Shown piece after piece: positions 28,438 through 41,942 of a stretch of DNA of 64,000 bases. The stretch is from Candidatus Kaiserbacteria bacterium. Its GTDB lineage: Bacteria; Patescibacteriota; Minisyncoccia; Phycocordibacterales; UBA918. Every line of letters starts with the position of its first letter. Positions within the stretch are counted from its first letter, which is position 1. The DNA lies in the NCBI GenBank assembly GCA_031430855.1, contig JANPCG010000012.1, forward strand, positions 496 through 64,495, in the 5' to 3' direction. The position numbers and the translations under genes are program-made. The notes beneath the pieces are model-generated. The model had not been told where the DNA came from. It made no database searches and worked only from the letters and a program-made list of their open reading frames with translations.

Positions 28438-29166
28438 CTAGCAAACCGTTGAGCCAATTGTCTCAAGTTTCTCCTTCACCTTCTCCCATTTAGGGAACTT
28501 CTGATCAAGGAAGGTAAAGAATCTTTTATCGTGATTCTTATACTTCATATGGCAGAGTTCGTGAACGATAACGTAGTCGATACAGTCCTTTGAAGTGTGA
28601 ATCAGTTTAGGGTTGAGGAATATCTTGTCTTGGTTCAAGAAACTACCCCAACGCTTCTTCATTTCTCGAATAGATAGCTTCGGCGTACTCTTGAAATCAA
28701 AGCGAGTAAGCATCTCGGTAAACCTATCTTGAAAGATGAGGTTAGTTTTCTCTGCAAACCAATTCTCGATAAGCTTCTTGTTGTGTTTGCCGTCGGTAAC
28801 TGATTTTGTTGTGAGAACAACGAGTTGACCTCGGGTAAGCGAAACAGAATCCTCTCTAGCTTTTCGAACAATGAGTTTGTATTGTCTACCGAGGTATAGG
28901 TATCCCTCGCCTGACACATATTCTTTTTCGTACATCTTTCGCTGGTACTTCTTAAAGAACGAAAGTTGCTTCTCTAGCCAGAACCACTTCTTTTGGAGAA
29001 AGGCTTCAATTCTTTCGCCTTCAGCTTTGAGGGGACACTTTACGATAATGCGTAAATCTGGAGTAACCGTGAGGCTCAGCGTTTTACGGTCTTGTTTAAT
29101 AAGTTGATATTCGTATATGAATGTTCCGAAGATAAATTCCTTCATATGATTATAAGAACAAATCAA
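28438..29166 (-). CDS. DUF45/YgjP-like zinc metallohydrolase (HExxH)
   Basis: VIVHELCHMKYKNHD motif; this family is commonly encoded beside type I hsdR. Confidence 0.6.
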   Translation of the reverse strand: MICSYNHMKEFIFGTFIYEYQLIKQDRKTLSLTVTPDLRIIVKCPLKAEGERIEAFLQKKWFWLEKQLSFFKKYQRKMYEKEYVSGEGYLYLGRQYKLIVRKAREDSVSLTRGQLVVLTTKSVTDGKHNKKLIENWFAEKTNLIFQDRFTEMLTRFDFKSTPKLSIREMKKRWGSFLNQDKIFLNPKLIHTSKDCIDYVIVHELCHMKYKNHDKRFFTFLDQKFPKWEKVKEKLETIGSTVC

Positions 29167-32100
29167 AATTATGCTCTGCTAGGAGCAGGGCGGTTTCAAT
29201 AACAACCTTGATCTGGTCGTTATCAATATCAATACCTTTCTCTCCCTTCACGATGTCATACAGATAGTCGTCAATACTATTTCGCATCTTGCGCTTCACG
29301 TCCGCATTTTTATACCAGTCGACGATTGCCTCGTTCTTGATGATGGTGAATATGTCGAGAATAGTAGCGATATAGACTTCCTCGCTGAGGTTCAGGTTAT
29401 CAAGTTCGACTCGAAGATTACGGTAGAACACATCTGAACCCTTTTGCGATTCAATCTGTTCTGGAAGGCTTTCATCTTTCTTGTTCACCACGTCGTCACT
29501 AATGAGTTTCATTTGCTTCAACGCTTCAACATCAGCGAGTTTGCCTTGACGCATCTTCTCAAGAATCTCTGAAATCTTCTTAGAAAACTTCTCGTAGAAT
29601 TCAGGATCACTATCCATTTTCTCTGAAATGGTTCTTTCAGTTTGTGCCGCGATTGCCTCAGCTTTTGACTTGTCAGAACCAAGGTTAGCCACCGCTTCCT
29701 CAAACTGCTTTCTGTCGGTAATGTTTACCTGCTTTGTGAGCAACTCAACGCCACGAGCATCAACATATTTATCAAGGATATTAATGAGTGATTGTTTGTA
29801 CTCAAGTAGATCAACACGGTCGGCATACTTTAGACTCGCAGACTTACGAAGTTCCAAGAACTTCTTGAGTTCACGCTTGTAGAGGTCGAGGTGATCGAAT
29901 TCATGAACGAAGTCTTGTAGCACAAAACACTCGTTCAGGTTTTTAATGAATGCATTAAGAGTCTTGTAGAACGTCTCACGTTTTGGTTGGTCAGATAGGA
30001 ATTGGAGATAGACTTCATCATCGGTTGATCCTTTGATTTCATTAAATAAATCATGGACGGTTCCATAACTCTGTTCTAGGTCTTGTATCTTCTCAGACAC
30101 ATCAATCAGAGTGCCTTTAACATCAGTCTCATCATAGTTACCGAAAAGCTTCATCGCTGTGTCGATGTTCTTAGCATTCTCGGAATAGTCCATGATGTAT
30201 CCGGCAGTCTTAGGCTTTTCCTTCTTGTTCTCAAACAAACGGTTTACACGCGCAATAGCCTGAAGCAAGTTGTGATCTTTTAGATCCTTGGCGAGATAGA
30301 GTACGGTGTTGCGTGGTGCATCAAAACCAGTGAGTAGTTTGTCGCACACAATAATGACCTCGATGCCATCGTCGTTATACTTAAAACTCCCGACGACATC
30401 CTTTTCGTATTTATCGACGCTACTGTGATTCTTACGAACTCCTTCTAGGTATCCGACTACTTCTTTCTTGTGGAGATTCTCCTCGTCTCCGTCTTCATGT
30501 TCATCAGAAATAATAACCGCCGTACGAATATTTCCCCGAGTCTCAAAGAACTTCTGGAAAAGGATGGCTGAGTATTTCGATGGAGCAACAATCTGAGCCT
30601 TGAGTCCGGTGTACTGGAAGTTCCTAATAAAGTGCGTTTCTATATCGTACGCAATTTCGACAATACGCTGAGGATTGTCTTTAATTATCTTACTTCCAAT
30701 GTATCGTTGTAGCTCTTTCTTCTGCTTCTCATTAAGTCCTTCGGTGATACGTTCAACATGGCGGTCTATTTGTTCCGCATTCTGAATGAGGTCTACATAC
30801 CGACCCTCATAGATAAGAGGGAGAATGATGTTATCAGCGAGAGCGTCATCAATGGTGTACTTATCGATGTAATCACCGAACTTCTTCCAACTCTCTCGGT
30901 CTTTCTTCATGAGTGGCGTACCAGTAAATCCGATGTAACAGGCATTTGGAATGATTCGATTCATCTCAAAGTTCGCCATACCGTTCTGACTTCGGTGTGC
31001 CTCATCAATAAGCACAAAGATATTTTTATCGTCGTCAACAAATCCCGTGCTCTTTTTTGCCGCAGATTCAAACTTCTGGACAAGCGTAGTTACTACCGAT
31101 AGATCCTTCTCTTTAATGAGGTCAATCAAGTGCTGACCACTGGTAGCCTGAACAACCTCTTTCTTGAGGTTACAGTTCTTAAACGTATCTTTGATCTGTT
31201 TATCCAAGTCACGACGGTCTGTCACAATAATGACTCGTGGATTGAGAATATGAGGATCCTCAATAAGAGCCTTCACAAACATCACCATAGTCAGTGACTT
31301 ACCTGATCCTTGGGTATGCCAGACGAGCCCACCTTTTCGGCGAGTGATCTCGTGGTCAGTTACTTCTTCCTCTTCCACTCGCTTCAACATCTTATGGATA
31401 GCAAAATACTGCTGGTAGCGTGAGAGCTTCTTTACTCCTGCGTCAAAGAGAATGTAATTTTTGGTCAAATCCAAAAGGCGTTTCGGCTCAAAGAGTGAAA
31501 ACACCCCTCGGTCTTGTTCTGTAGGGAGGCGGTCGGTTCTTTGTTTGTGACCATCCGTATAGCCGTTGAGGTCTTGTAGTACCTGAGCGTACACATCAGC
31601 ATCAATAGGCTTCTGAATCAGAGCGGTTACTTGTTCGTTAAATGTTTCTAGATCTGTGCCTTTTTCTTTCCATACCGCATAGAATTTGTTCGGTGTGCCA
31701 GTTGTTCCGTACTGTAGTTCCTTGCCGTTGGTAGCCACAAGGAGCTGGGTGTATGTGTACAGATTAGGGCAAAACTCAGAACTTTGGTTACGGTTCATTT
31801 GGTTAATCGCTTCACTTACCGCAACGCTCGACTTCTTGTTTTCAATGACTGCAAAAGGTAGCCCGTTAACGAACACCACGATATCTGGTCGTATGTTCTG
31901 CTTACCACTACAAGCATATTCAACAGATACGTGAAAAGCGTTATTGGCAATGTTTTCAAAATCTATGAACCGAAAGTTCTTTGATACTTTTTTACCGCCA
32001 TTATTAACCTTAATGGTCTTACCACCACTCGTCGGCATGATGGTGTTGTATATCTTCTGAGCAGTATCTATGAGTCCTTCGTATTGGATATGCTCAAGTT

Positions 32101-32341
32101 CATCAATAGCGTCACGTACATCTTTCTCACTGAATTTATAATCAGTACCATCGACCTCGTATCCATTGATCTCCATCAGTTTCTCTGTAGCAATATCAGC
32201 CAAGATGAAGTTTGAAGTATTGCCACGTTGCTTCAAAGCCTCCTCAACAGAAACATAGGTGTAGCCCGTATTCAGAAGAAGCTCCACAAATGGAAGTTGC
32301 GATTGTCGTGCCTCGTCAAAATTTACTTTATCTAATGTCAT
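29150..32341 (-). CDS. hsdR: Type I restriction enzyme R subunit
   Basis: 1063 aa; helicase motif I HTQGSGKSLT and DEAH (VLIDEAHRSQ). Confidence 0.9.
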   Translation of the reverse strand: MTLDKVNFDEARQSQLPFVELLLNTGYTYVSVEEALKQRGNTSNFILADIATEKLMEINGYEVDGTDYKFSEKDVRDAIDELEHIQYEGLIDTAQKIYNTIMPTSGGKTIKVNNGGKKVSKNFRFIDFENIANNAFHVSVEYACSGKQNIRPDIVVFVNGLPFAVIENKKSSVAVSEAINQMNRNQSSEFCPNLYTYTQLLVATNGKELQYGTTGTPNKFYAVWKEKGTDLETFNEQVTALIQKPIDADVYAQVLQDLNGYTDGHKQRTDRLPTEQDRGVFSLFEPKRLLDLTKNYILFDAGVKKLSRYQQYFAIHKMLKRVEEEEVTDHEITRRKGGLVWHTQGSGKSLTMVMFVKALIEDPHILNPRVIIVTDRRDLDKQIKDTFKNCNLKKEVVQATSGQHLIDLIKEKDLSVVTTLVQKFESAAKKSTGFVDDDKNIFVLIDEAHRSQNGMANFEMNRIIPNACYIGFTGTPLMKKDRESWKKFGDYIDKYTIDDALADNIILPLIYEGRYVDLIQNAEQIDRHVERITEGLNEKQKKELQRYIGSKIIKDNPQRIVEIAYDIETHFIRNFQYTGLKAQIVAPSKYSAILFQKFFETRGNIRTAVIISDEHEDGDEENLHKKEVVGYLEGVRKNHSSVDKYEKDVVGSFKYNDDGIEVIIVCDKLLTGFDAPRNTVLYLAKDLKDHNLLQAIARVNRLFENKKEKPKTAGYIMDYSENAKNIDTAMKLFGNYDETDVKGTLIDVSEKIQDLEQSYGTVHDLFNEIKGSTDDEVYLQFLSDQPKRETFYKTLNAFIKNLNECFVLQDFVHEFDHLDLYKRELKKFLELRKSASLKYADRVDLLEYKQSLINILDKYVDARGVELLTKQVNITDRKQFEEAVANLGSDKSKAEAIAAQTERTISEKMDSDPEFYEKFSKKISEILEKMRQGKLADVEALKQMKLISDDVVNKKDESLPEQIESQKGSDVFYRNLRVELDNLNLSEEVYIATILDIFTIIKNEAIVDWYKNADVKRKMRNSIDDYLYDIVKGEKGIDIDNDQIKVVIETALLLAEHNFDLFL

Positions 32342-32345
32342 ATGT

Positions 32346-33623
32346 TTATGAGGTTATTTTGGCTGATAATGTTTCAGGTGTTCGGATGGTCCCAGTGATT
32401 AGGTTGTTGAGGAGATATCTTTTCTGTTCTTTGATGATGGACAGTTTCTTTTCCAGCTCGGTTATTTCTTTATCTGCGGTTATTAATATTTTTACAATGG
32501 CTTCTTGTTCTTCAATAGGAGGGAGTTTTAATTCAAACTTTGCCATATCCGATCCATACAGGTGAAAGACTGTGGTGCCTGAAACAAGTTTGATGACGTC
32601 TTTTTTATTTAGATTAACTAGGTAACAAAAGAAGAGTCCATTCAAACTACCATTGGATCTTATGATTAAGATATCTCCTCCTAAAATGATCCCATCTTTA
32701 TCTAGATAACTTGCTGTAGACAAACCTCGGGGAGTAACATCGGAAGTTGGCATGAGGATATCGTTTACTTTCGAAAGAACCATACCTTTATTGTAGTTTG
32801 TTTTGCTTATGATGTTCTCTATATACTCAGCGTACTTAGTAAATAGCTCTCCATAATGTATGGCTTCGTATTTTCCTTCAGAATCTAGGTCGTTCTTAGG
32901 CAAACCTTTACCTTTTTTAAATGACGCAATTTCTCCAAGTTTTACAGACTTCCACTTCTCACCAAATCCAGTTAATCGTCTTTTACCAGTTAGTAAATCC
33001 TGCATCAGACTTTTCTTGATCTGCTTTTTTACTTCAATTTTTCGCGTAAGCCTTTTAATTATCTGGTCCCAAGTTTCTATAACAGAGATAATACGACTTT
33101 GTTCTAGTAGGGGTGGGAGAGCAAGTTTGAATTTTTTAATCAACGGAATCGTCAATTGTGGCTGGGCACTGCCGAATGATACTCGCTTGAGCTCTCTTAA
33201 GAAATGAGACGAAATAAAATATTTATAGAGGAAGGCAGTCTCTAAATCAGTATCTACAGTTTTGTTTCTTAGTATTGCCATCCCAGAGTTAATCCTTACA
33301 TCAGCAAAAGGAACGTTCTCAGAATATGAAGCCACACTACCGATTGTGCCTCTGGTTGTAATCACAAGATCACCTCTTTCGAGCCTTCCTTTATTCATTG
33401 ATGAGTCCTTTGCTTTTGAAATAAATTGATTCTCACTAAAATTAAAACCTTGTTTTGTAACATTTGTGGCAGTAAGAAAAAGACAAAAACCATCAGTTGA
33501 AAAATCATCCTGATGCGGGTAGTTTTTACCCCTATCGCCGTCAATAACTTTTACCCCAACTTCCTGCAAAGTTAAATTTCTCCATCCTTGGGGTATATTT
33601 TTTTGTGATTGGTTAGTTTTCAT
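32346..33623 (-). CDS. hsdS: Type I restriction-modification specificity subunit
   Basis: Two TRDs separated by conserved LALPPLLEQ / LKLPPIEEQ coiled-coil spacers. Confidence 0.85.
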   Translation of the reverse strand: MKTNQSQKNIPQGWRNLTLQEVGVKVIDGDRGKNYPHQDDFSTDGFCLFLTATNVTKQGFNFSENQFISKAKDSSMNKGRLERGDLVITTRGTIGSVASYSENVPFADVRINSGMAILRNKTVDTDLETAFLYKYFISSHFLRELKRVSFGSAQPQLTIPLIKKFKLALPPLLEQSRIISVIETWDQIIKRLTRKIEVKKQIKKSLMQDLLTGKRRLTGFGEKWKSVKLGEIASFKKGKGLPKNDLDSEGKYEAIHYGELFTKYAEYIENIISKTNYNKGMVLSKVNDILMPTSDVTPRGLSTASYLDKDGIILGGDILIIRSNGSLNGLFFCYLVNLNKKDVIKLVSGTTVFHLYGSDMAKFELKLPPIEEQEAIVKILITADKEITELEKKLSIIKEQKRYLLNNLITGTIRTPETLSAKITS

Positions 33624-33625
33624 AA

Positions 33626-34936
33626 TTAACTCCCATTTAAAACCACATCTTGCCTAGCCTTAGCAACACAAATGTTATTCTTTATGGCATAGCACTCAAC
33701 ATAATGATTGCCAGAATATTTTGTATCCTCTATTTCATTTTTAGTTCGATTATCAGTTATTTCTCCTCTTGGCTGATCACAAGAACTATCGTTCTTAACT
33801 TTCCATTTAAAGATATTTACATCTGGAGAGTTTCCCGATATTAAGAATTTAATCTTCCTGTCTACGCTAATTAGCCCAATTTTATCTAGAATAAATTCTC
33901 TAAAACCACCCCTGCGCACTTGGACTTCTCCGCAGATCTTAAAATTGTATTGTTCTTCAAGTAAAGTTTTAATATTTTCGTCAAATATAAATTTCTCAGA
34001 CGGCGATCTCTTGTAAAAAGAAATATCTACTAGATTATCTGTAGAGTCTGAATCTCTCAGGTTTTCAAGTTTTATTAAAAAACCATCTCGAGCACAGAGT
34101 ATCTTTTCTTTCTGATCGGGTGTGAGTTTCGCTAGGTAATCATCAATAAATTTCGCACTATTTGCTCTATCTTGAATTTGATTAGGGGTATTAACAACGT
34201 TTGGTAAGTTTATAAAAAATGTAAAAATGGCATCAAAAATTTCAATGTTTGGATTTTGTTTAAATATTTTTGTAATTACTTGCTCAAGGTGAAAAGACTT
34301 GAGTTTCAAGTTTTGATCTTTATCGCATAGATTATTTTTCCATCTTTTAACAAACTTCACTGTCTTTCTAAAATCACTATTTATACCAACCTCAGTAGCA
34401 ACTTTAATGTATCCTCTAGGATCAGAGTTAATCCAAGCGTTTGTATCAGAAGCATTCCAAGTCAAAGTATTACGTTTGTTGTGGTTTCTCTCTTTAATCA
34501 CTTCCGGAACCTTATATGTATCCTGATTGAACTCATTTTTTCCGTATGAATAAGCAGGAACAATATCAACTGATAAAATCATGTCAGTGTTTTGCCAAAA
34601 CTCTACAGTAACTGAGTGTGTCTGTAGAGAAACCTTCTTCATGTAGCTTGTCGGATTTCTATAGCTACCACTTATTTCATTAAATAATTTTTGAAGTGTT
34701 GCTGAAGGTGAGTGATCATTTTCATCCCAAGAACCAAGAATATATAGAATATCCAGATCATGAATAGGTGTTATTGCTGTGAAGCGAGGATATGATCCTA
34801 TTTGAATACAGTTATTTACACCAAATAGGTCATTAAAAGACTGGTAGACTTTACCTATCAAATCTTGCTCGGTAGGTTTAGGTGAGAGTGTCTTCGCATA
34901 CTCTCGCAATTTTGAGTTGAATTTATCTTTTGTCAT
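33626..34936 (-). CDS. cGAS/DncV-like nucleotidyltransferase (CD-NTase/SMODS-type Pol-beta NTase)
   Basis: IGSYPRFTAITPIHDLDILYIL (GS-x11-DxD) and a third acidic motif SVDIVPA 52 aa later; 436 aa with a long helical C-terminus; coupled between hsdS and the 2-TM gene. Confidence 0.55.
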   Translation of the reverse strand: MTKDKFNSKLREYAKTLSPKPTEQDLIGKVYQSFNDLFGVNNCIQIGSYPRFTAITPIHDLDILYILGSWDENDHSPSATLQKLFNEISGSYRNPTSYMKKVSLQTHSVTVEFWQNTDMILSVDIVPAYSYGKNEFNQDTYKVPEVIKERNHNKRNTLTWNASDTNAWINSDPRGYIKVATEVGINSDFRKTVKFVKRWKNNLCDKDQNLKLKSFHLEQVITKIFKQNPNIEIFDAIFTFFINLPNVVNTPNQIQDRANSAKFIDDYLAKLTPDQKEKILCARDGFLIKLENLRDSDSTDNLVDISFYKRSPSEKFIFDENIKTLLEEQYNFKICGEVQVRRGGFREFILDKIGLISVDRKIKFLISGNSPDVNIFKWKVKNDSSCDQPRGEITDNRTKNEIEDTKYSGNHYVECYAIKNNICVAKARQDVVLNGS

Positions 34937-35468
34937 AACTTGTGCTCAGTAGAGTTGTCACTATGTCATTAATAAGACGACCTCGCATATTAACAATAGT
35001 AGTAAATTGCTGATTGTTTATTGCCTTCATCATTTCTGGAGAAATCACAATTGATGGGGGTGTGAACTCAGGAAAGTAAAAAATAAAACCCGCATTTGAT
35101 TTCTTGTTTGAAAGAATAGTTTTTATCTGGTCTTCAGTAAAAGACTGATAGTGTACTAACGCCAATGTAGTTTCTTTTACTTTTGACAGTGTGTCCGGTT
35201 TGATTTGGTAGATATTTTTTTCTCTAAAAACACCCGTGTCAACTAAATCTGTCTTTAACGATGAAAACATATCGTCATTAGCCACTATCGCAATTTTTCT
35301 ACTCCAACGACCAAACCCTAACCTTAAAAAGAGTGGATATACACCAAGAGTCCAACTCGTTATCGCCCAGATGAAAAGACATATAGCAAAGATCGTTGTT
35401 AGCGCTCCGACAATATTTACAAATATAGTTAAGAAATTTAGTAGAGTCATATATTTATTTAATTCCAA
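34923..35468 (-). CDS. 2-TM membrane protein with C-terminal alpha/beta domain, candidate effector partner of the NTase
   Basis: Two N-terminal TM helices (residues about 8-52) then an about 125-aa soluble domain; overlaps hsdM stop and NTase start by 14 nt each. Confidence 0.45.
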   Translation of the reverse strand: MELNKYMTLLNFLTIFVNIVGALTTIFAICLFIWAITSWTLGVYPLFLRLGFGRWSRKIAIVANDDMFSSLKTDLVDTGVFREKNIYQIKPDTLSKVKETTLALVHYQSFTEDQIKTILSNKKSNAGFIFYFPEFTPPSIVISPEMMKAINNQQFTTIVNMRGRLINDIVTTLLSTSYDKR

Positions 35469-36963
35469 GTTCTTTTAGATAAACAGCCATTTGTTTTTCA
35501 AGCTTCTGTAGCTCTGGTTCAAGTTCTGCAAGTTCTTTCAGGTTCGCAGTAATATCTACAGGGGCTTCTTCGGTGAAAGTATCTACGTAACGAGTGATGT
35601 TGAGGTTGAAATCGTTCTCCTCAATCTCTTTAAGACTCACTTTGCGAGCAAACTTTGCTACATCTTTACGAGTCTTGTAGGTAGAGTAAATCTTCTCGAT
35701 GTTTTCATCGGTCAGAATGTTCTGAGCCTTATTTGCCTTGAACTCCTTAGATGCTTCGATAAAGAAGACATCTTTCTTGCTTTCATTCTCTCCGCCTTTT
35801 TCTCGCGAACGGTCTAAGACGAGAATTGCTACTGGAATACCTGTGGTCTGGAATAGTCCGGCTGGGAGCCCAATAACTGCTTCGACGACGTTTTCCTTTA
35901 GAAGTTGTTCACGGATTTTACCCTCGGCTCCACCTCGAAAGAGAACACCATGAGGAACAATAACGGCAATGCGCCCTGTCTTTGGTTTTGCTGTTTCCAC
36001 CATGTGCGTGATAAAGGCAAAGTCACCTTTATCCTTCGGTGGAGTACCACGCCAGAAGCGCTTGTACTTGTCTGCATCCGCATGTTCCGCACCCCATTTC
36101 TTGAGAGAGAATGGTGGGTTCGATACTACCGTGTCGAACTTCATTAGACGATCGTCTTCAACGAGAAGTGGATTGTTGAGTGTGTCACCCCATTCCAGAC
36201 GAGCAGAATCCTTTCCGTGGAGGAACATATTCATGCGAGCAAGTTGATAGGTTGAACCTGTTGATTCCTGACCATACAGAGCGTAGTTTTTAGAGCCTTG
36301 TTTCTCTACTTCTTCACCAGCAAGGAGGAGGAGACCACCCGATCCGGCACAAGGGTCACAGATACGTGCGCCAGGCTTTGGTTCGGCAAGCCGTGCTACG
36401 AGATGAGCTACATTGCGAACGGTAAAAAATTCACCAGCTTTTTTACCTGCGTCTGCACCAAACTTCTCAATCAGGTACATGTAAGAGTTACCGATGATAT
36501 CGTCATTTACTCCTGTGAGATCAATCTTTGCAAAATCTTGTACGAGGTTGCGGAGCATCTTGTTACGCTCAGCAAGTTTGCCGAGGTTTGCTTCTGAGTT
36601 GAAGTCTACAGAAAATACACCATCAAGCTTTTCCTTGTTATGGTCTTCAATACGATGGAGTGCCTTGTTTATTTCTTCACCAAGGTTGTCTTGTTCGATG
36701 ATTGAGTAAATGTAATCAAACGATGACTTCGGAGGGAGGTAGAAGCGATCCAGCTTCATTTTTTCCTCGATACGCTTTTCGTCGCCAGCGAACCGCTTTT
36801 TGTATTCGTCGTGTGCTGTCTTTGATTTATCACTAAGATACTTCAAGAAAAGCATCGGAAGTACGTAGTTCATGTAGTCCGCCGCATTGAGCTGACTGCG
36901 TGAAGAGTTTGCCGAATCCCAAAGGGTCTTATTGAGGTCTTCCTGAGTGTATTTCTTAGTCAT
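35455..36963 (-). CDS. hsdM: Type I R-M N6-adenine DNA methyltransferase subunit
   Basis: Motif I DPCAGSGGLL and motif IV NPPF. Confidence 0.9.
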   Translation of the reverse strand: MTKKYTQEDLNKTLWDSANSSRSQLNAADYMNYVLPMLFLKYLSDKSKTAHDEYKKRFAGDEKRIEEKMKLDRFYLPPKSSFDYIYSIIEQDNLGEEINKALHRIEDHNKEKLDGVFSVDFNSEANLGKLAERNKMLRNLVQDFAKIDLTGVNDDIIGNSYMYLIEKFGADAGKKAGEFFTVRNVAHLVARLAEPKPGARICDPCAGSGGLLLLAGEEVEKQGSKNYALYGQESTGSTYQLARMNMFLHGKDSARLEWGDTLNNPLLVEDDRLMKFDTVVSNPPFSLKKWGAEHADADKYKRFWRGTPPKDKGDFAFITHMVETAKPKTGRIAVIVPHGVLFRGGAEGKIREQLLKENVVEAVIGLPAGLFQTTGIPVAILVLDRSREKGGENESKKDVFFIEASKEFKANKAQNILTDENIEKIYSTYKTRKDVAKFARKVSLKEIEENDFNLNITRYVDTFTEEAPVDITANLKELAELEPELQKLEKQMAVYLKELGIK

Positions 36964-36964
36964 A

Positions 36965-37567
36965 TTATTGGTTAATTAAATTAAAGCTGGCGTTGATAAT
37001 GGTTTTTTGGATCTCTTGCTTTCGTTTGTGTATTCGTTCTTGGTCGGTGATGTTTTCCTGAAGGGCTATGATCGACTTCTGTGTATGTACTGGCGGTAGG
37101 GGTATTTCAAAGTCGTTGAGGTTTTTTACGAGGATGCTCTGTATGTATGAGGCACCTGTAACTATTTGCGATAGTGCCTTTTGTCCGTCTGTTGAATTGA
37201 GATAAAGACAGACATACTTAGGTAGCGCAGTGACGTCTTTGATTCGAATGACATGAACCGATGATGATGGCATCACACGCATCTCATTTGAGGCAAAGAC
37301 AGCAGAGCGAAACGAACCAGCTCCTGAGCCTCTTGAAACAAGCAAAATATCGTTATACTGCAAAAAGTAGGGGGTTCTGAGTGATTTACCTGAAAACAGG
37401 GTCAGATCGCCCGTTTCAACCACTTCTTGATTCGGAGAGATATTCTTGGCTTGGAGCACGAAGATGTCGCCTTTAGGGTCATTTTCAATCGGTCCACGGA
37501 ACGTGTACCCAGAAGATATGTCTGCTATTTGGCTCAATTCCTTGTGCATGTATGGAGTGTACTGCAC
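36965..37567 (-). CDS. Half-size HsdS-like specificity protein (single TRD)
   Basis: 200 aa with one TRD plus conserved IPLPPVHTQKSIIALQ spacer; 1 nt upstream of hsdM. Confidence 0.6.
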   Translation of the reverse strand: MQYTPYMHKELSQIADISSGYTFRGPIENDPKGDIFVLQAKNISPNQEVVETGDLTLFSGKSLRTPYFLQYNDILLVSRGSGAGSFRSAVFASNEMRVMPSSSVHVIRIKDVTALPKYVCLYLNSTDGQKALSQIVTGASYIQSILVKNLNDFEIPLPPVHTQKSIIALQENITDQERIHKRKQEIQKTIINASFNLINQ

Positions 37568-37657
37568 TTATTGTAAAAAAGCAAATTCTGGTCAATTTGG
37601 CAACCTACATGAGTCGCACTGGACTCTTTAGGCGTTCGGCGTCATTGATGTGTTTGT

Positions 37658-38986
37658 ATGAATCAAGCAATATCAATGCCATACGGCACCAAAATACAGG
37701 AGGTAGTACCCGTAAAGGTGAAATACTGCCTTTACGCAAGAAAATCAACGGAATCAGAAGAACGCCAAGTTCTCTCTATAGATAGCCAGATTAAGGAGAT
37801 GCTCCAGCTGGCAGACCGAGAGTGCTTGGAGGTGGTGACAATGAAGCGAGAAAGTCACTCCGCGAAGGAGACTGGGCAACGACCAGTCTTTAACGAAATA
37901 GTCGAAGAGATAGGAGAAGGTAAATACAATGGAATTCTGACATGGGCACCAGACCGTATCAGCAGAAATGCCGGCGACCTTGGGAGAATTGTAGACTTAA
38001 TGGACTCAGGCAAGCTCGAAGAAATACGCACCTTCGGGCAGAAGTTCGGCAATAATCCAAACGAGAAGTTCCTGCTGATGATTTTGGGATCACAGGCAAA
38101 ACTCGAGAATGACAACCGCGGTATCAATGTGAAGCGAGGTTTGAGAACAAGAGCTGAGATGGGACTATGGTCGGGACAAGCTCCCTTAGGTTATCTAACC
38201 CAAGGGCTAATGGATAAGAAATGCCAGCTGATTATTGACCCACTCCGAGCATCAGCAGTGAAGCAGATGTTTGAAAAAGTAGCCTACGAACAATGGTCAG
38301 GACGCAAGGTATACAACTGGCTCCGCTTCGAGCTCAACTTCTATACAAGAGGAAATAAACCTCTCACCCTCGGAGGTGTGTACCGCATCCTAGAAAACCC
38401 TTTCTACTACGGCGTCTTCGAGCGACCACGTAAAAGTGGAAACTGGTATCAAGGTAAACATACGCCACTCATCACACAGGAGTTATTCGAGAAATCAAAA
38501 GCCCAGCTCAAGCGTGATCAGATAGTGCGTGAGACTAAAGAATTTGCCTTCACGAAACTTTTCACCTGCGGATACTGTGGATCAGGTATATCAGCTGAAG
38601 AGAAATGGAAACAACTCAAGGATGGTGGAGCAAATAGATACATATACTACTCCTGCTCACGAGCGCGAGACCGCAACTGCAAGAACATGTATATCCGCGA
38701 AGAAGATTTAATACTAGAACTCCTGAAGATATTGGATAAGGTAAATATCAATGAGCTTGGTATGAGGCAGAAGCTTGAGGATGAAATTGCACGGTTCAAT
38801 ATTTTCCAACGGTCGGTACTTGGAGCCAAAGAAAAGATAAAAACAGATGCAGATACTGATATACGAAACTACGCAAAGTACATACTGAAAGAAGGTACGA
38901 CGATTGAGAAACGTGAACTACTGGCGAACTTACGATCACGGATAATGTACAAAGATAAAACGCTCACCTTGATAGATGAGCGTTAA
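37658..38986 (+). CDS. Large serine recombinase (integrase/resolvase family)
   Basis: Catalytic YARKSTESEE..SIDSQ N-terminal domain, recombinase domain and C-terminal zinc ribbon (CGYCG..CSRARDRNC); likely start at MPYGTK (37676). Confidence 0.85.
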   Translation: MNQAISMPYGTKIQEVVPVKVKYCLYARKSTESEERQVLSIDSQIKEMLQLADRECLEVVTMKRESHSAKETGQRPVFNEIVEEIGEGKYNGILTWAPDRISRNAGDLGRIVDLMDSGKLEEIRTFGQKFGNNPNEKFLLMILGSQAKLENDNRGINVKRGLRTRAEMGLWSGQAPLGYLTQGLMDKKCQLIIDPLRASAVKQMFEKVAYEQWSGRKVYNWLRFELNFYTRGNKPLTLGGVYRILENPFYYGVFERPRKSGNWYQGKHTPLITQELFEKSKAQLKRDQIVRETKEFAFTKLFTCGYCGSGISAEEKWKQLKDGGANRYIYYSCSRARDRNCKNMYIREEDLILELLKILDKVNINELGMRQKLEDEIARFNIFQRSVLGAKEKIKTDADTDIRNYAKYILKEGTTIEKRELLANLRSRIMYKDKTLTLIDER

Positions 38987-39096
38987 ATCATAAAAGTTCG
39001 GTATCTCACGTACCTCAAGCTAAGTGGGTCAAAAGACTCGCTTAATTTTTTGGCTTGAAATAAGGGTACTCGGGTCACACCGATACTTAGTTCTAT

Positions 39097-39186
39097 TGGC
39101 GGAGAGAGGGAGATTCGAACTCCCGAGGAGGTTTCCCCCCTGACAGTTTTCAAGACTGTTCCATTCAACCGCTCTGGCATCTCTCC
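39097..39186 (-). tRNA. tRNA-Ser (anticodon UGA), type II with long variable arm, CCA encoded
   Basis: Reverse complement GGAGAGATGCCAGAGCGGTTGAATGG...CAGTCTTGAAAACTG...GGGAGTTCGAATCTCCCTCTCTCCGCCA folds as a class II tRNA. Confidence 0.85.
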
Positions 39187-39275
39187 AAATATGTAATTTT
39201 CTGCCGTCCGTTAGGAACAGATACTAGCAAATAATGGTGAAAATGTATACAGCTCTCATGCTACAATAATTCGTA

Positions 39276-40781: not shown

Positions 40782-41000
40782 GAGAGCACAAGCACAAAAA
40801 TGAGCACCCCTTAAAAAGGGTGCTATTTTCATTCGTGCTCTCACAGTAATTGTGCCTACGCACAGGTACGTCAGGAATCGAAAGTCGGAGTGATGTGAGT
40901 TTATGAACAAGTGAGACAGGGTCGTGAGCGACATATTTTTAAAGAGCGAAGCGATTATGAAAATAGTCGACTCCTGGCCGATTCCTGGCGACAGAACTGC
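40782..41000 (+). repeat. About 210-bp tRNA-associated repeat, copy B
   Basis: Homologous to 39884-40100; ends with gattcctggcgacag (a degenerate tRNA 3' end). Confidence 0.7.
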
Positions 41001-41121
41001 AAGGTATCCTTATCTCCTACACGAGTGAGTACAAGAATCTAATGTGAGATATAAAAAATGGACTGACATCGCACGAAGCGATGTCAGTCCAGCTACACAA
41101 GCGCCAGGTTTGCAACGGGTA

Positions 41122-41862
41122 TCAGACGTGCGCCACGCTCCGCAGGATGTGTCCTGCCGCAGTGGTTTTGCGATCGAGGCGAGTCAAGTCATGCAGCTGC
41201 ATCTTGATCGATGGACCCATCGATTGAGGTAGGCCGAAGTGGAGCAAGAAGTTCTGACCAAGACCGTGTCGCAAAAACGACTCGGTTTCTTCGGCAATTA
41301 CTTCTGGTTTGTCGCCCATACCTGCCCGAATCACACACTCTGGCATCTCTGCCATTTGACAGCTGCAGCCACAGCCGTGACCCAGAATACGCCCGGTCGC
41401 CACGTTGATGGTCGTTTGTACATCGAAGTACAGGCGACTGCAGAGCGGCAATGCATGAAGCATCGAGTCTGCAATTTGCCAGTTCATGGCGTCGGGGAGT
41501 AGATGTTCGATTTCAGGAATCCGCTCCTCAACCGTCGGATCTTCACGGGTGCCAAGAAATGCCAACGTAGCATAGAACTGTCTCGGCAGCCGGTCGTGGA
41601 AGCGCTGGAAGATGTGTTTCATTGCACCCAAATATTCCGTCTTTAGCCGAAACAGTGGGTCTCTCAGGCGGGGCTGATATTCATCGAAAGTAAAGCTCGA
41701 AACCCCGAGGTATCCAGCCGCGAACCGTTCCGCGATTTCTTGCCCCAGTCTGCACTGGTGCATGGTGTGCATATGCTCCATGAAGCCTTGCAGTGAAGCG
41801 ATGAGATCGGGATAGAAACCGTCCTGCTTGAGGATTTCAAGCGAGGGAGTTGTATGGGGCAT
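41122..41862 (-). CDS. Hypothetical protein with GHGCGCSC Cys cluster in a GC-rich (about 55%) block
   Basis: 246 aa ORF; strong compositional contrast with its flanks. Confidence 0.4.
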   Translation of the reverse strand: MPHTTPSLEILKQDGFYPDLIASLQGFMEHMHTMHQCRLGQEIAERFAAGYLGVSSFTFDEYQPRLRDPLFRLKTEYLGAMKHIFQRFHDRLPRQFYATLAFLGTREDPTVEERIPEIEHLLPDAMNWQIADSMLHALPLCSRLYFDVQTTINVATGRILGHGCGCSCQMAEMPECVIRAGMGDKPEVIAEETESFLRHGLGQNFLLHFGLPQSMGPSIKMQLHDLTRLDRKTTAAGHILRSVAHV

Positions 41863-41942
41863 GTTAGACCTCCTCTAAGGAACAAATTAGTGGCATCATT
41901 GCCACCCCTCTATACCCATAAGATACAGAGGGGTGAGAACGA

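Follow-up and report, generated by a model that had tools for sequence, protein, structure and literature searches.

We found that the two genes lying between hsdM and hsdS in a type I restriction-modification (R-M) operon of the window (that is, the entire 64,000-nt stretch of DNA analyzed) encode what is, by its profile matches, a recognized type I CBASS, composed of a cyclase and an effector. The pair is quite likely an autonomous abortive-infection module that a mobile R-M operon carries, and expresses with its own genes, as exchangeable cargo between hsdM and hsdS. The locus is a tidy case of a pattern already documented, not a system of a new kind.

RESULTS

The R-M operon and its neighborhood

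Open reading frames (ORFs) and Pfam matches define seven genes on the minus strand, in the order half-HsdS, HsdM, membrane protein, nucleotidyltransferase (NTase), HsdS, HsdR, and YgjP/DUF45. The first gene (36965..37567) starts with GTG and encodes a half-HsdS of 200 aa with one target-recognition domain (TRD) (Pfam Methylase_S, E 4e-10; PADLOC Specificity_I); in almost every orthologous locus, a half-HsdS of ~190-200 aa likewise precedes hsdM. The second gene (35455..36963) encodes HsdM, a type I N6-adenine DNA methyltransferase of 502 aa (Pfam HsdM_N and N6_Mtase, E 6e-100; PADLOC MTase_I, E 2.5e-123), whose translation shows the NPPF and DPCAGSGG motifs. Downstream of the inserted pair are the genes for a full-length HsdS of 425 aa (32346..33623; Pfam Methylase_S in two stretches, E 1.3e-35; PADLOC Specificity_I, E 3.4e-65) and for HsdR, the restriction/translocase subunit of 1063 aa (29150..32341; Pfam HSDR_N, SWI2_SNF2, ResIII, and T1R_D3-like; PADLOC REase_I, E 1.2e-145), in which the DEAH motif is apparent. 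The joint presence of HsdM, HsdS with two TRDs, and HsdR, all with full-length Pfam and PADLOC matches, identifies a type I R-M system. The last gene of the operon (28438..29166) encodes a YgjP-like (DUF45) metallopeptidase (Pfam YgjP-like, E 1.7e-52; no match in NCBIfam) and follows hsdR in most orthologous loci as well.

In operon order, the junctions are a 1-nt gap, a 4-nt gap, a 14-nt overlap, a 2-nt gap, a 4-nt gap, and a 17-nt overlap. These values, together with the gene coordinates and identities, bear out an earlier note on this DNA that described seven tightly packed minus-strand genes, and the ORF coordinates agree with its placement of the NTase and membrane protein genes exactly between hsdM and hsdS. 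Judging by this spacing, a single transcript for all seven genes is plausible. In a consensus scan, promoter- and terminator-like sites were not enriched inside the operon (10 promoter-like sites observed vs 23.4 in shuffles; no convincing terminator), which is compatible with one transcript, although such a scan is uninformative for a non-model host lineage.

Against a GC content of 0.428 for the whole window, the GC and GC3 values are 0.347 and 0.31 for the membrane protein gene and 0.330 and 0.27 for the cyclase gene, compared with 0.447 and 0.44 for hsdM and 0.424 and 0.47 for hsdR. The pair is indeed more AT-rich than these two genes, as noted earlier, and hsdS (0.365 and 0.32) is AT-rich too.

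Divergent from the operon, on the plus strand, is a gene for a large serine recombinase (37658..38986; Pfam Resolvase, Recombinase, and Zn_ribbon_recom), which adjoins a tRNA-Ser gene (39097-39186). A homologous recombinase occupies the same position in seven other loci (L001, L007, L087, L088, L094, L100, and L102), and this enzyme may mobilize the whole hsd island. A repeat search over 32000-39200 detected only short, chance-level repeats, none of them flanking the CBASS cassette, and no inverted repeats between half-hsdS and hsdS; hence there is no evidence of a recombinase-driven hsdS shufflon.

The cyclase

The NTase gene (33626..34936, minus strand), the start of which overlaps the effector stop by 14 nt, encodes a 436-aa CD-NTase, that is, a CBASS oligonucleotide cyclase, with a C-terminal AGS-C fusion, as indicated by PADLOC, Pfam, profile, and fold comparisons. 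Residues 1-434 match the PADLOC cyclase model PDLC00785 (E 4.4e-184), Pfam reports SMODS (E 4e-7) and AGS_C, and the profile of the protein matches Pseudomonas aeruginosa CdnD (E 1.9e-13). The best Foldseek matches of the AlphaFold model (pLDDT 81.6) are CdnD, CdnC, and cGAS (E 1.6e-10). In an alignment of 16 sequences that are 54-74% identical to the window cyclase and include it as the first row (alignment A1), the catalytic residues G47-S48, D60-x-D62, and D124 (codons within 34565..34798, minus strand) are invariant down to 54% identity and align with the GS/DxD region of CdnD. The protein accordingly has the pol-beta fold and the G[G/S]...[D/E]x[D/E]...[D/E] catalytic residues of CBASS cyclases. 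The AGS-C domain (residues 326-432; 33641..33961, minus strand; Pfam AGS_C, E 2.9e-16) is all-beta, with only strands modeled across residues 331-433. This domain is found in ~40% of type I CBASS cyclases, in which it alters phage specificity (bioRxiv 10.1101/2023.05.21.541620).

The NCBIfam models CBASS_cyclase_a (NF041116) and CBASS_cyclase_b (NF041117) gave 48.8 and 87.6 bits, respectively, below the 200-bit cut-off; judged by these scores, the cyclase belongs to a CD-NTase subfamily other than those captured by the two narrow models. The two scores are elsewhere quoted in the reverse order (87.6 and 48.8 bits), both well under 200.

The effector

The effector gene (34923..35450, minus strand) has an alternative TTG start at 35468 (34923-35468). 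The ATG at 35450, which yields 175 aa, is most likely the actual start considering that the homologs are 175 aa long and that an exact 175-aa product is on record for the contig. From this ATG, the gap to hsdM is 4 nt; if the TTG were used, the two genes would overlap by 14 nt. The protein matches the PADLOC CBASS effector model PDLC00664, labeled "1TM," over its full length (E 2e-53). The AlphaFold model (pLDDT 87.5) predicts an N-terminal membrane helix followed by a cytosolic CheY-like (beta-alpha)5 domain, in which invariant Arg-rich loops are located where the beta-strands end. DSSP assigns a single long helix to residues 3-43 of the model (35322..35444, minus strand), corresponding to the transmembrane (TM) segment and a juxtamembrane stretch, and 19-residue Kyte-Doolittle means exceed 1.6 solely in windows within residues 1-40. 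Hydropathy, the model, and the PADLOC label all indicate that the partner, previously described as a 2-TM protein, probably has one TM helix. Cap15 has a beta-barrel architecture.

The helix leads into a conserved RLGFGRWxRK motif, in which R43, G45, R48, W49, and R51 are invariant in the family alignment (A2, with the window effector as the first row). In the CheY-like domain (residues 50-172; 34935..35303, minus strand), H100-Y101, Y125-P127, and N154-R156-G157-R158 are invariant and lie at the C-terminal ends of beta3, beta4, and beta5. A true REC/CheY receiver was considered and ruled out by these conserved residues: the domain does not show the receiver hallmarks, namely a phospho-acceptor Asp where beta3 ends, two acidic residues following beta1, and the conserved Thr/Ser and Lys. 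The effector matched no Pfam family at E 0.01 and no NCBIfam model. Because the domain resembles receivers by general fold only (6-15% identity) and has no Pfam family, nucleotide sensing by the effector is an assumption; by analogy, the CheY-like domain is presumed to sense the signal nucleotide.

Spread of the CBASS pair

The effector gene is directly upstream of the cyclase gene, and the neighbors of the pair are hsdM and hsdS, with no Cap2/Cap3, HORMA/TRIP13, or type IV genes beside it. The PADLOC run suggested in the earlier note called the pair as a CBASS cyclase (PDLC00785) and effector (PDLC00664). That note had proposed a minimal CBASS-like or uncharacterized module; the former description holds, and the latter does not, given full-length PADLOC matches for both proteins. 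Neither ORF is a housekeeping gene or a fused hsd domain.

Effector and cyclase stay together in the majority of the 74 species-representative loci, where their genes typically overlap by 14 nt as they do here, and orthologs with 81-86% identity show the same intact arrangement. In about two thirds of the species-representative loci, the pair is a stand-alone two-gene operon beside unrelated genes, which speaks for a module that functions independently of R-M. The remaining third (~20 of the ~58 non-redundant loci) are associated with R-M operons of types I, II, and III. We rejected the possibility that the insert is specific to the position after hsdM, considering that the pair lies after hsdS in Flavobacterium, after hsdR in L050, and before hsdR in L032. 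The family does not appear to be typically phage-borne, with two good matches in a scan of 2.9 million viral contigs. Literature searches returned no experimentally tested member of this CBASS subfamily.

The hsdM-hsdS interval as a cargo slot

Comparison with orthologous loci delineates the CBASS cassette as the content of a variable slot that extends from the hsdM stop to the hsdS start (33624..35454, minus strand). By blastn, homology to the nearest hsd ortholog, L087 (HsdM 96% identical), breaks off at the hsdM stop (window position 35447) and picks up again within hsdS (33119); the slot of L087 holds PD-T7-4 and a different CBASS. The suggestion that the pair is a later, exchangeable insert is supported by these breakpoints.

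Among 80 hsd loci fetched, 52 carried both hsdM and hsdS, and in all 52 of these close orthologs the interval contained variable cargo of 670-3918 nt. The cargo comprises 162 ORFs in 75 protein clusters, nearly all co-directional, with PADLOC matches to PD-T7-4, PDC-S05, PDC-S13, GajB, SduA, AriA/AriAB, PtuA, AbiLi, and Old, as well as to a second CBASS cyclase family (PDLC00801). The CBASS family described here was found in 4 of the 80 fetched loci and a different CBASS cyclase in another 4. None of these intervals is empty; in this hsd family, the region between hsdM and hsdS behaves like a slot reserved for cargo. A cGAS-like NTase with a membrane partner in this position had been regarded as unusual, but a defense module there is not, given the presence of variable cargo in all 52 loci, in many cases with matches to known or candidate defense models.

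DISCUSSION

Relationship to known systems

It is documented as a general phenomenon that type I R-M operons harbor embedded defense genes (bioRxiv 10.1101/2024.01.29.577857; PMC11411939; PMC12707154); such genes are common, and 96.7% are co-oriented with the host system (bioRxiv 10.1101/2024.01.29.577857). Like PrrC in the EcoprrI type IC locus, the pair is an abortive-infection module nested co-directionally between hsd genes, but PrrC is a tRNA (anticodon) nuclease that occurs almost only within R-M loci and is under the control of the R-M complex (PMC12707154), whereas the pair is a nucleotide-signaling module from a family that is stand-alone in about two thirds of loci. TgvAB, a GmrSD-like type IV system in the type I R-M operon of Vibrio cholerae VPI-2, is similarly an independent, co-oriented two-gene module (PMC11411939). 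Among the candidate HEC/PDC systems identified through "guilt-by-embedding" by Payne et al. (bioRxiv 10.1101/2024.01.29.577857), PDC-S05 and PDC-S13 are also part of the orthologous slot cargo. Unlike these, the cargo in the window is an already classified system. In the preprint of Payne et al., the term CBASS is absent from the main text, figures aside.

With type I AGS-C CBASS, the pair shares the two-gene cyclase and effector operon free of Cap2/Cap3 and HORMA/TRIP13 genes, the Pol-beta-type GS/DxD/D residue set, the C-terminal all-beta AGS-C domain, and a small membrane-anchored effector. Unlike type I operons that have been screened, such as CdnB-Cap15 and CdnD12-4TM (bioRxiv 10.1101/2023.05.21.541620), it is effector-first with a 14-nt overlap. 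The predicted combination of one TM helix and a CheY-like domain differs from the 2-TM/4-TM layout of most type I operons (bioRxiv 10.1101/2023.05.21.541620) and matches none of the Pfam effector families at E 0.01. In addition, this copy lacks its own promoter region because of its location inside the hsd operon.

Full-text literature searches, with Burroughs 2015, Millman 2020, and the published Richmond-Buccola 2024 outside their scope, found no paper on a CBASS nested in an hsd operon. It is possible that this exact arrangement was described earlier. The abstract of Burroughs et al. 2015 (NAR) is said to mention nucleotide-signaling systems "sometimes combined with restriction-modification."

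Proposed function and alternatives

By analogy, we infer that phage infection would activate the CD-NTase, with the AGS-C domain influencing to which phage cue the enzyme responds, and that the active enzyme would synthesize a cyclic oligonucleotide to be bound by the effector, a single-pass membrane protein, through its cytosolic CheY-like domain. The effector would then oligomerize and disrupt the membrane, so that the infected cell is stopped. R-M would act first, against unmodified incoming DNA, and the putatively co-transcribed CBASS would provide a second layer of anti-phage activity against phages that escape restriction. The sub-threshold NCBIfam cyclase scores and the lack of a Pfam family for the effector count against autonomous CBASS cargo.

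The recurrence of homologous pairs within R-M operons of three types or immediately downstream of them, usually with the methyltransferase gene just ahead of the pair, could instead suggest a PrrC-like guardian: the pair would be restrained by, or would monitor, the methyltransferase/restriction complex and fire when a phage anti-restriction protein disables that complex. Such pairs are embedded in type I (L001, L004, L007, L008, L033, L052, and L061), type II (L005 and L014), and type III operons, the latter in the order mod-[pair]-res (L009 and L058/L059), and the six additional homologs examined for genomic context, chosen for their long contigs, are all R-M-embedded. PrrC within EcoprrI is a precedent (PMC12707154), and the family resides in R-M operons far more often than most known defense systems in the per-system counts of Payne et al., which do not include CBASS, leaving room for real functional coupling. 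We nevertheless consider a guardian unlikely. About two thirds of the species-representative loci are stand-alone, beside housekeeping genes; with ~20 of ~58 loci R-M-associated, the family is not essentially only R-M-embedded as PrrC is; and the embedded members fall into at least nine separate clades, interleaved with stand-alone ones. Furthermore, type I operons carry the pair at different sites (behind hsdM, hsdS, or hsdR, or ahead of hsdR), and dozens of unrelated defense genes occupy the same slot, such that the position of the pair reflects the slot and not the cargo. To our knowledge, type I, II, and III R-M systems have no common inhibitor-binding surface, which also speaks against a guardian. 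We are equally doubtful that this CBASS family is specialized for work with R-M and that its repeated capture downstream of the methyltransferase gene reflects functional coupling, which could consist of a link to the methyltransferase, either translational or stoichiometric, or of guardian-like sensing of R-M failure. If such coupling were true, the pair would be a nucleotide-signaling analog of PrrC, not passive cargo.

The AT-rich composition, suggestive of recent foreign origin, and the frameshifted or split cyclases in other genomes (L064, L065, L068, L071, and L086) would fit a decaying remnant that hitch-hikes in an addictive R-M operon after losing its function. This is very improbable, however, for the pair in the window: both ORFs are full length with the 14-nt overlap preserved, the intact arrangement recurs in the 81-86% identical orthologs, and both proteins have all family-invariant residues, catalytic ones included, albeit by construction, as A1 and A2 each have the respective window protein as the top row. 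That the genes are not a defense signaling pair at all, but a housekeeping or toxin-antitoxin NTase (MNT/KNTase-like) or extra hsd domains, is effectively refuted. The Pfam SMODS match is weak when taken alone (E 4e-7) and the NCBIfam CBASS models stay under their cut-offs, but the full-length PADLOC cyclase match (E 4e-184), the CdnD/CdnC/cGAS fold, the AGS-C domain, and the obligate pairing with a CBASS effector family all oppose this interpretation, and the pair has no similarity to HsdM, HsdS, or HsdR.

Implications

If the pair is indeed autonomous CBASS cargo, the locus would be a clear natural case of layered immunity in which restriction comes first and abortive infection follows, with both layers apparently produced from one packed operon on an island that the adjacent serine recombinase may mobilize. 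Its relatives show how the layers are shuffled, as the slot swaps CBASS variants, PD-T7-4, Gabija-like, Shedu-like, PARIS-like, and uncharacterized genes. The unannotated slot cargo, for example, the 307-aa, 242-aa, and 163-aa families, offers ready candidate defense genes. For CBASS biology, the modeled combination of one TM helix with a CheY-like domain represents a candidate effector type. Current concepts are unchanged, and the documented patterns are extended to genomes whose closest named relatives belong to the candidate phyla radiation (Paceibacterota-like).

A type I CBASS within a type I R-M operon

The operon comprises seven consecutive minus-strand genes, identified in the window by ORF listing combined with Pfam and PADLOC scans. 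These encode a half-HsdS with one Methylase_S domain (36965-37567), HsdM (35455-36963), a small membrane protein (listed ORF, 34923-35468), a nucleotidyltransferase containing SMODS and AGS_C domains (33626-34936), full-length HsdS (32346-33623), HsdR (29150-32341), and a YgjP-like/DUF45 metallopeptidase (28438-29166). From the half-hsdS gene onward, adjacent genes are spaced by +1, +4, -14, +2, +4, and -17 nt, in agreement with the tight packing described in an earlier note; together with the absence of internal signals, this spacing suggests a single transcript. The hsdM stop codon TAA is followed by ATAT and an ATG at 35450, and that of the cyclase gene, also TAA, by TT and the hsdS ATG. 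Considering that the membrane protein homologues are 175 aa long and that an exact 175-aa product is recorded for the source contig, the ATG at 35450 is the likely effector start, which corrects the start codon of the listed ORF. A match to LOOT RNA (Rfam RF03000; 28202-28328, minus strand; 74.2 bits vs a gathering score of 46.4, E = 4e-12) immediately follows the YgjP-like gene, with which the operon ends.

Two hsdS genes are conserved across the hsd family, in the window and in loci fetched from other genomes and contigs (denoted by L-numbers: L056, L057, L060, L061, L063, and L087-L166): upstream of hsdM, one for a half-size protein of ~190-200 aa with a single target-recognition domain, and downstream, one for a full-length HsdS. 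The half-HsdS looks like a standing component rather than a recombination remnant, possibly giving a second specificity. No inverted repeats linking the half-hsdS and full-length hsdS genes were found.

The pair of genes between hsdM and hsdS is a type I CBASS consisting of a cyclase and an effector, without accessory genes. Residues 1-434 of the 436-aa cyclase match the PADLOC "Cyclase" model PDLC00785 (E = 4.4e-184). Its family is large, with 836 of the scored candidate proteins at E <= 1e-10. G47-S48, D60-x-D62, and D124 are invariant in a 16-member alignment (54-74% identity to the window protein), and the profile of this alignment matched Pseudomonas aeruginosa CdnD (6p82/6p8u; E = 1.9e-13). 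The best PDB matches of the AlphaFold2 model (mean pLDDT 81.6) are CdnD, CdnC, and then cGAS, in line with the cGAS-like identity suggested before. The Pfam match to AGS_C at residues 326-432 agrees with the model, which is all-beta over 331-433. The Ig-like AGS-C domain is present in ~40% of type I CBASS cyclases and alters which phages are restricted (bioRxiv 10.1101/2023.05.21.541620).

The PADLOC CBASS effector model PDLC00664 ("1TM") covers the full length of the membrane protein (E = 2e-53), for which a Pfam scan returned no family. In its structural model (pLDDT 87.5), a single long helix spanning residues 3-43 precedes a (beta-alpha)5 domain, so that the protein, initially described as 2-TM, probably has a single transmembrane helix. 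The soluble domain was rejected as a true receiver domain because it lacks the phospho-acceptor residues of receivers. Its invariant residues, H100-Y101, Y125-P127, and N154-R156-G157-R158, are arginine-rich and lie at the C-terminal ends of beta3, beta4, and beta5, where this fold usually binds its ligand, which suggests a putative nucleotide-binding site. With full-length CBASS model matches for both proteins, the proposed minimal CBASS-like module is substantiated but can no longer be called uncharacterised, and standard defense annotation is expected to call both systems.

The hsdM-hsdS interval is a hypervariable cargo slot

As previously stated, the effector and cyclase genes (GC 0.347 and 0.330; GC3 0.31 and 0.27) are more AT-rich than those for HsdM (0.447; 0.44) and HsdR (0.424; 0.47); the values are 0.365 and 0.32 for HsdS, and the whole-window GC is 0.428. 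A second compositionally odd segment (41000-41900, GC up to 0.53-0.54 vs 0.43 for the whole window), with a minus-strand ORF of 246 aa (41122-41862), is located just past the tRNA cluster.

A metagenome scan with the window HsdM yielded 80 loci (HsdM 73-96% identical). In all 52 loci carrying both genes on the contig, hsdM and hsdS are split by 670-3918 nt of added genes, never zero. This cargo, nearly all on the same strand, includes 162 ORFs in 75 protein clusters, and only four of the 80 loci (L099, L131, L151, and L164) contain the same effector-cyclase pair. PADLOC matches among the other cargo include PD-T7-4 (DUF4145), PDC-S05 (RhuM), PDC-S13 (Bro-N), GajB-like helicases, SduA, AriA/AriAB, PtuA, AbiLi, and Old. 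A defense module in this position is therefore nothing exceptional in this hsd family; the earlier note had considered a cGAS-like NTase with a membrane partner unusual there. Several clusters without a Pfam or PADLOC match, such as those of 307 aa (L113:5734-6657), 242 aa (L118:9324-10052), and 163 aa (L087:10060-10551), are candidate new defense genes.

The slot of the nearest orthologous locus, L087 (HsdM 96% identical), contains, at L087:8513-10551, PD-T7-4 (DUF4145) and a different CBASS cyclase (PDLC00801, E = 3.6e-88) with a 163-aa unannotated partner. This cyclase is shorter (294 aa), and the cyclase-first module was found in four loci. DNA homology between the window and L087 extends from the recombinase gene through hsdM, breaks off at 35447, 8 nt beyond the stop codon of hsdM, and starts again inside hsdS, at 33119. 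Given this break at the cassette and the variable cargo in 52 of 52 loci, the interval is a hypervariable slot and the pair a later insert, as had been proposed. A repeat search found no repeats flanking the cassette; hence, recombination within conserved flanking sequence is the presumed route of cargo exchange.

A large serine recombinase gene (37658-38986, plus strand), divergent from the operon, abuts tRNA-Ser(TGA) (39097-39186, minus strand), and a homologous recombinase is found in the same place beside many orthologous hsd operons. The recombinase gene and the hsd operon may together form an integrative island.

Genomic contexts of the cyclase family

Six further cyclase homologues (86-55% identity), chosen for long contigs, all reside in R-M operons, of differing types: type I, with the pair between hsdM and hsdS (L001, L004, L007, and L008); type II, with an ApaLI-like REase and N6_N4 MTase followed by the pair (L005); and type III, with the pair between mod and res (L009-L012). 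A species-level scan (one genome per species; ORF calling with phmmer and Pfam labelling) yielded 74 loci, in which the pair is nearly always intact and the two genes typically overlap by 14 nt, as in the window. About 20 of the ~58 non-redundant AGS-C-type loci are R-M-embedded or R-M-adjacent and co-directional; the others are two-gene operons that stand alone among unrelated genes, such as those for amidohydrolase, PQQ dehydrogenase, ABC transporter, HisA/F, and LexA-like proteins. These counts are based on ORF calling with table 11, seed-based labelling, and Pfam checks on 20 neighboring proteins, with contig-edge loci left unclassified and alternative-code loci (e.g., L008 and L167) outside the script; the L008 context comes from the separate contig look-up. 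In a neighbor-joining tree, R-M-embedded and stand-alone members are intermingled, the former making up at least nine separate clades. The position of the pair in type I operons is not fixed: it lies after hsdM, after hsdS (Flavobacterium loci L056, L057, L060, and L063), after hsdR (L050), or before hsdR (L032).

Several contexts recur or stand out. Genomes L040, L042, L043, and L044 and viral contig L168 share the order ~540-aa zinc-ribbon protein, LexA-like S24 peptidase/repressor, effector, cyclase, and ~424-440-aa unannotated protein, which suggests SOS-linked regulation in Pseudomonadales-like genomes. Some type I operons hold multiple cargoes, with further unannotated embedded genes besides the CBASS pair: L007/L017:9332-10920 (269 and 260 aa), L057:4438-7205 (461 and 459 aa), and L056:10439-13810 (529 and 560 aa). 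Shorter cyclases (L076-L085; ~337 aa, 32-38% identity) lack AGS-C and form a distinct three-gene arrangement, with a ~160-aa gene upstream and a ~243-aa gene downstream throughout; hsd genes adjoin two of these loci (L080 and L081). Under table 11, long ORFs are nearly lacking around the cyclase match of IMG/VR contig L167 and the Gracilibacteria gene of L008 does not give its recorded product, consistent with recoded stop codons (e.g., UGA as sense) in some carriers.

Probable autonomous defense in a shared operon

In the best explanation, the pair is likely an autonomous type I CBASS riding in the hsdM-hsdS slot and co-expressed with the R-M genes. The analysis demonstrates its family membership and fold, an unbroken set of catalytic residues, the conservation of the pairing and of the overlap, the limits of the cassette, and the variability of the slot. 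Recurrence of the R-M association across three R-M types could indicate that the pair monitors the R-M complex, as PrrC does in EcoprrI. However, the majority of the family loci are stand-alone, the position of the pair within operons varies, and many unrelated cargo families occupy the same slot, making such a guardian role unlikely. The poorly supported notions that the pair is an inactive passenger or that the nucleotidyltransferase serves a non-defense function appear improbable and highly improbable, respectively. By analogy with characterized systems, an autonomous CBASS would be triggered by a phage cue activating the cyclase, with AGS-C modulating; the cyclic oligonucleotide produced would bind the CheY-like domain of the effector, and effector oligomerization would then damage the membrane, resulting in abortive infection.

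The closest known systems include type I CBASS operons that combine an AGS-C cyclase with a TM effector, PrrC in EcoprrI (PMC12707154), and TgvAB in the VPI-2 type I R-M operon (PMC11411939). Another close comparison is the systematic analysis of embedded defense genes by Payne et al. (bioRxiv 10.1101/2024.01.29.577857). According to this preprint, genes are often embedded in BREX, DISARM, and type I R-M systems, and 96.7% of embedded genes share the orientation of the system around them; CBASS is not mentioned in its main text. A literature search, not extending to Burroughs 2015 or Millman 2020, found no paper on CBASS nested in an hsd operon. Modestly new, then, are the effector architecture, which lacks earlier characterization; the high rate of R-M embedding in this CBASS subfamily; and a slot that is never empty in this R-M lineage, of which the closest named relatives belong to the CPR (Paceibacterota-like bacteria).
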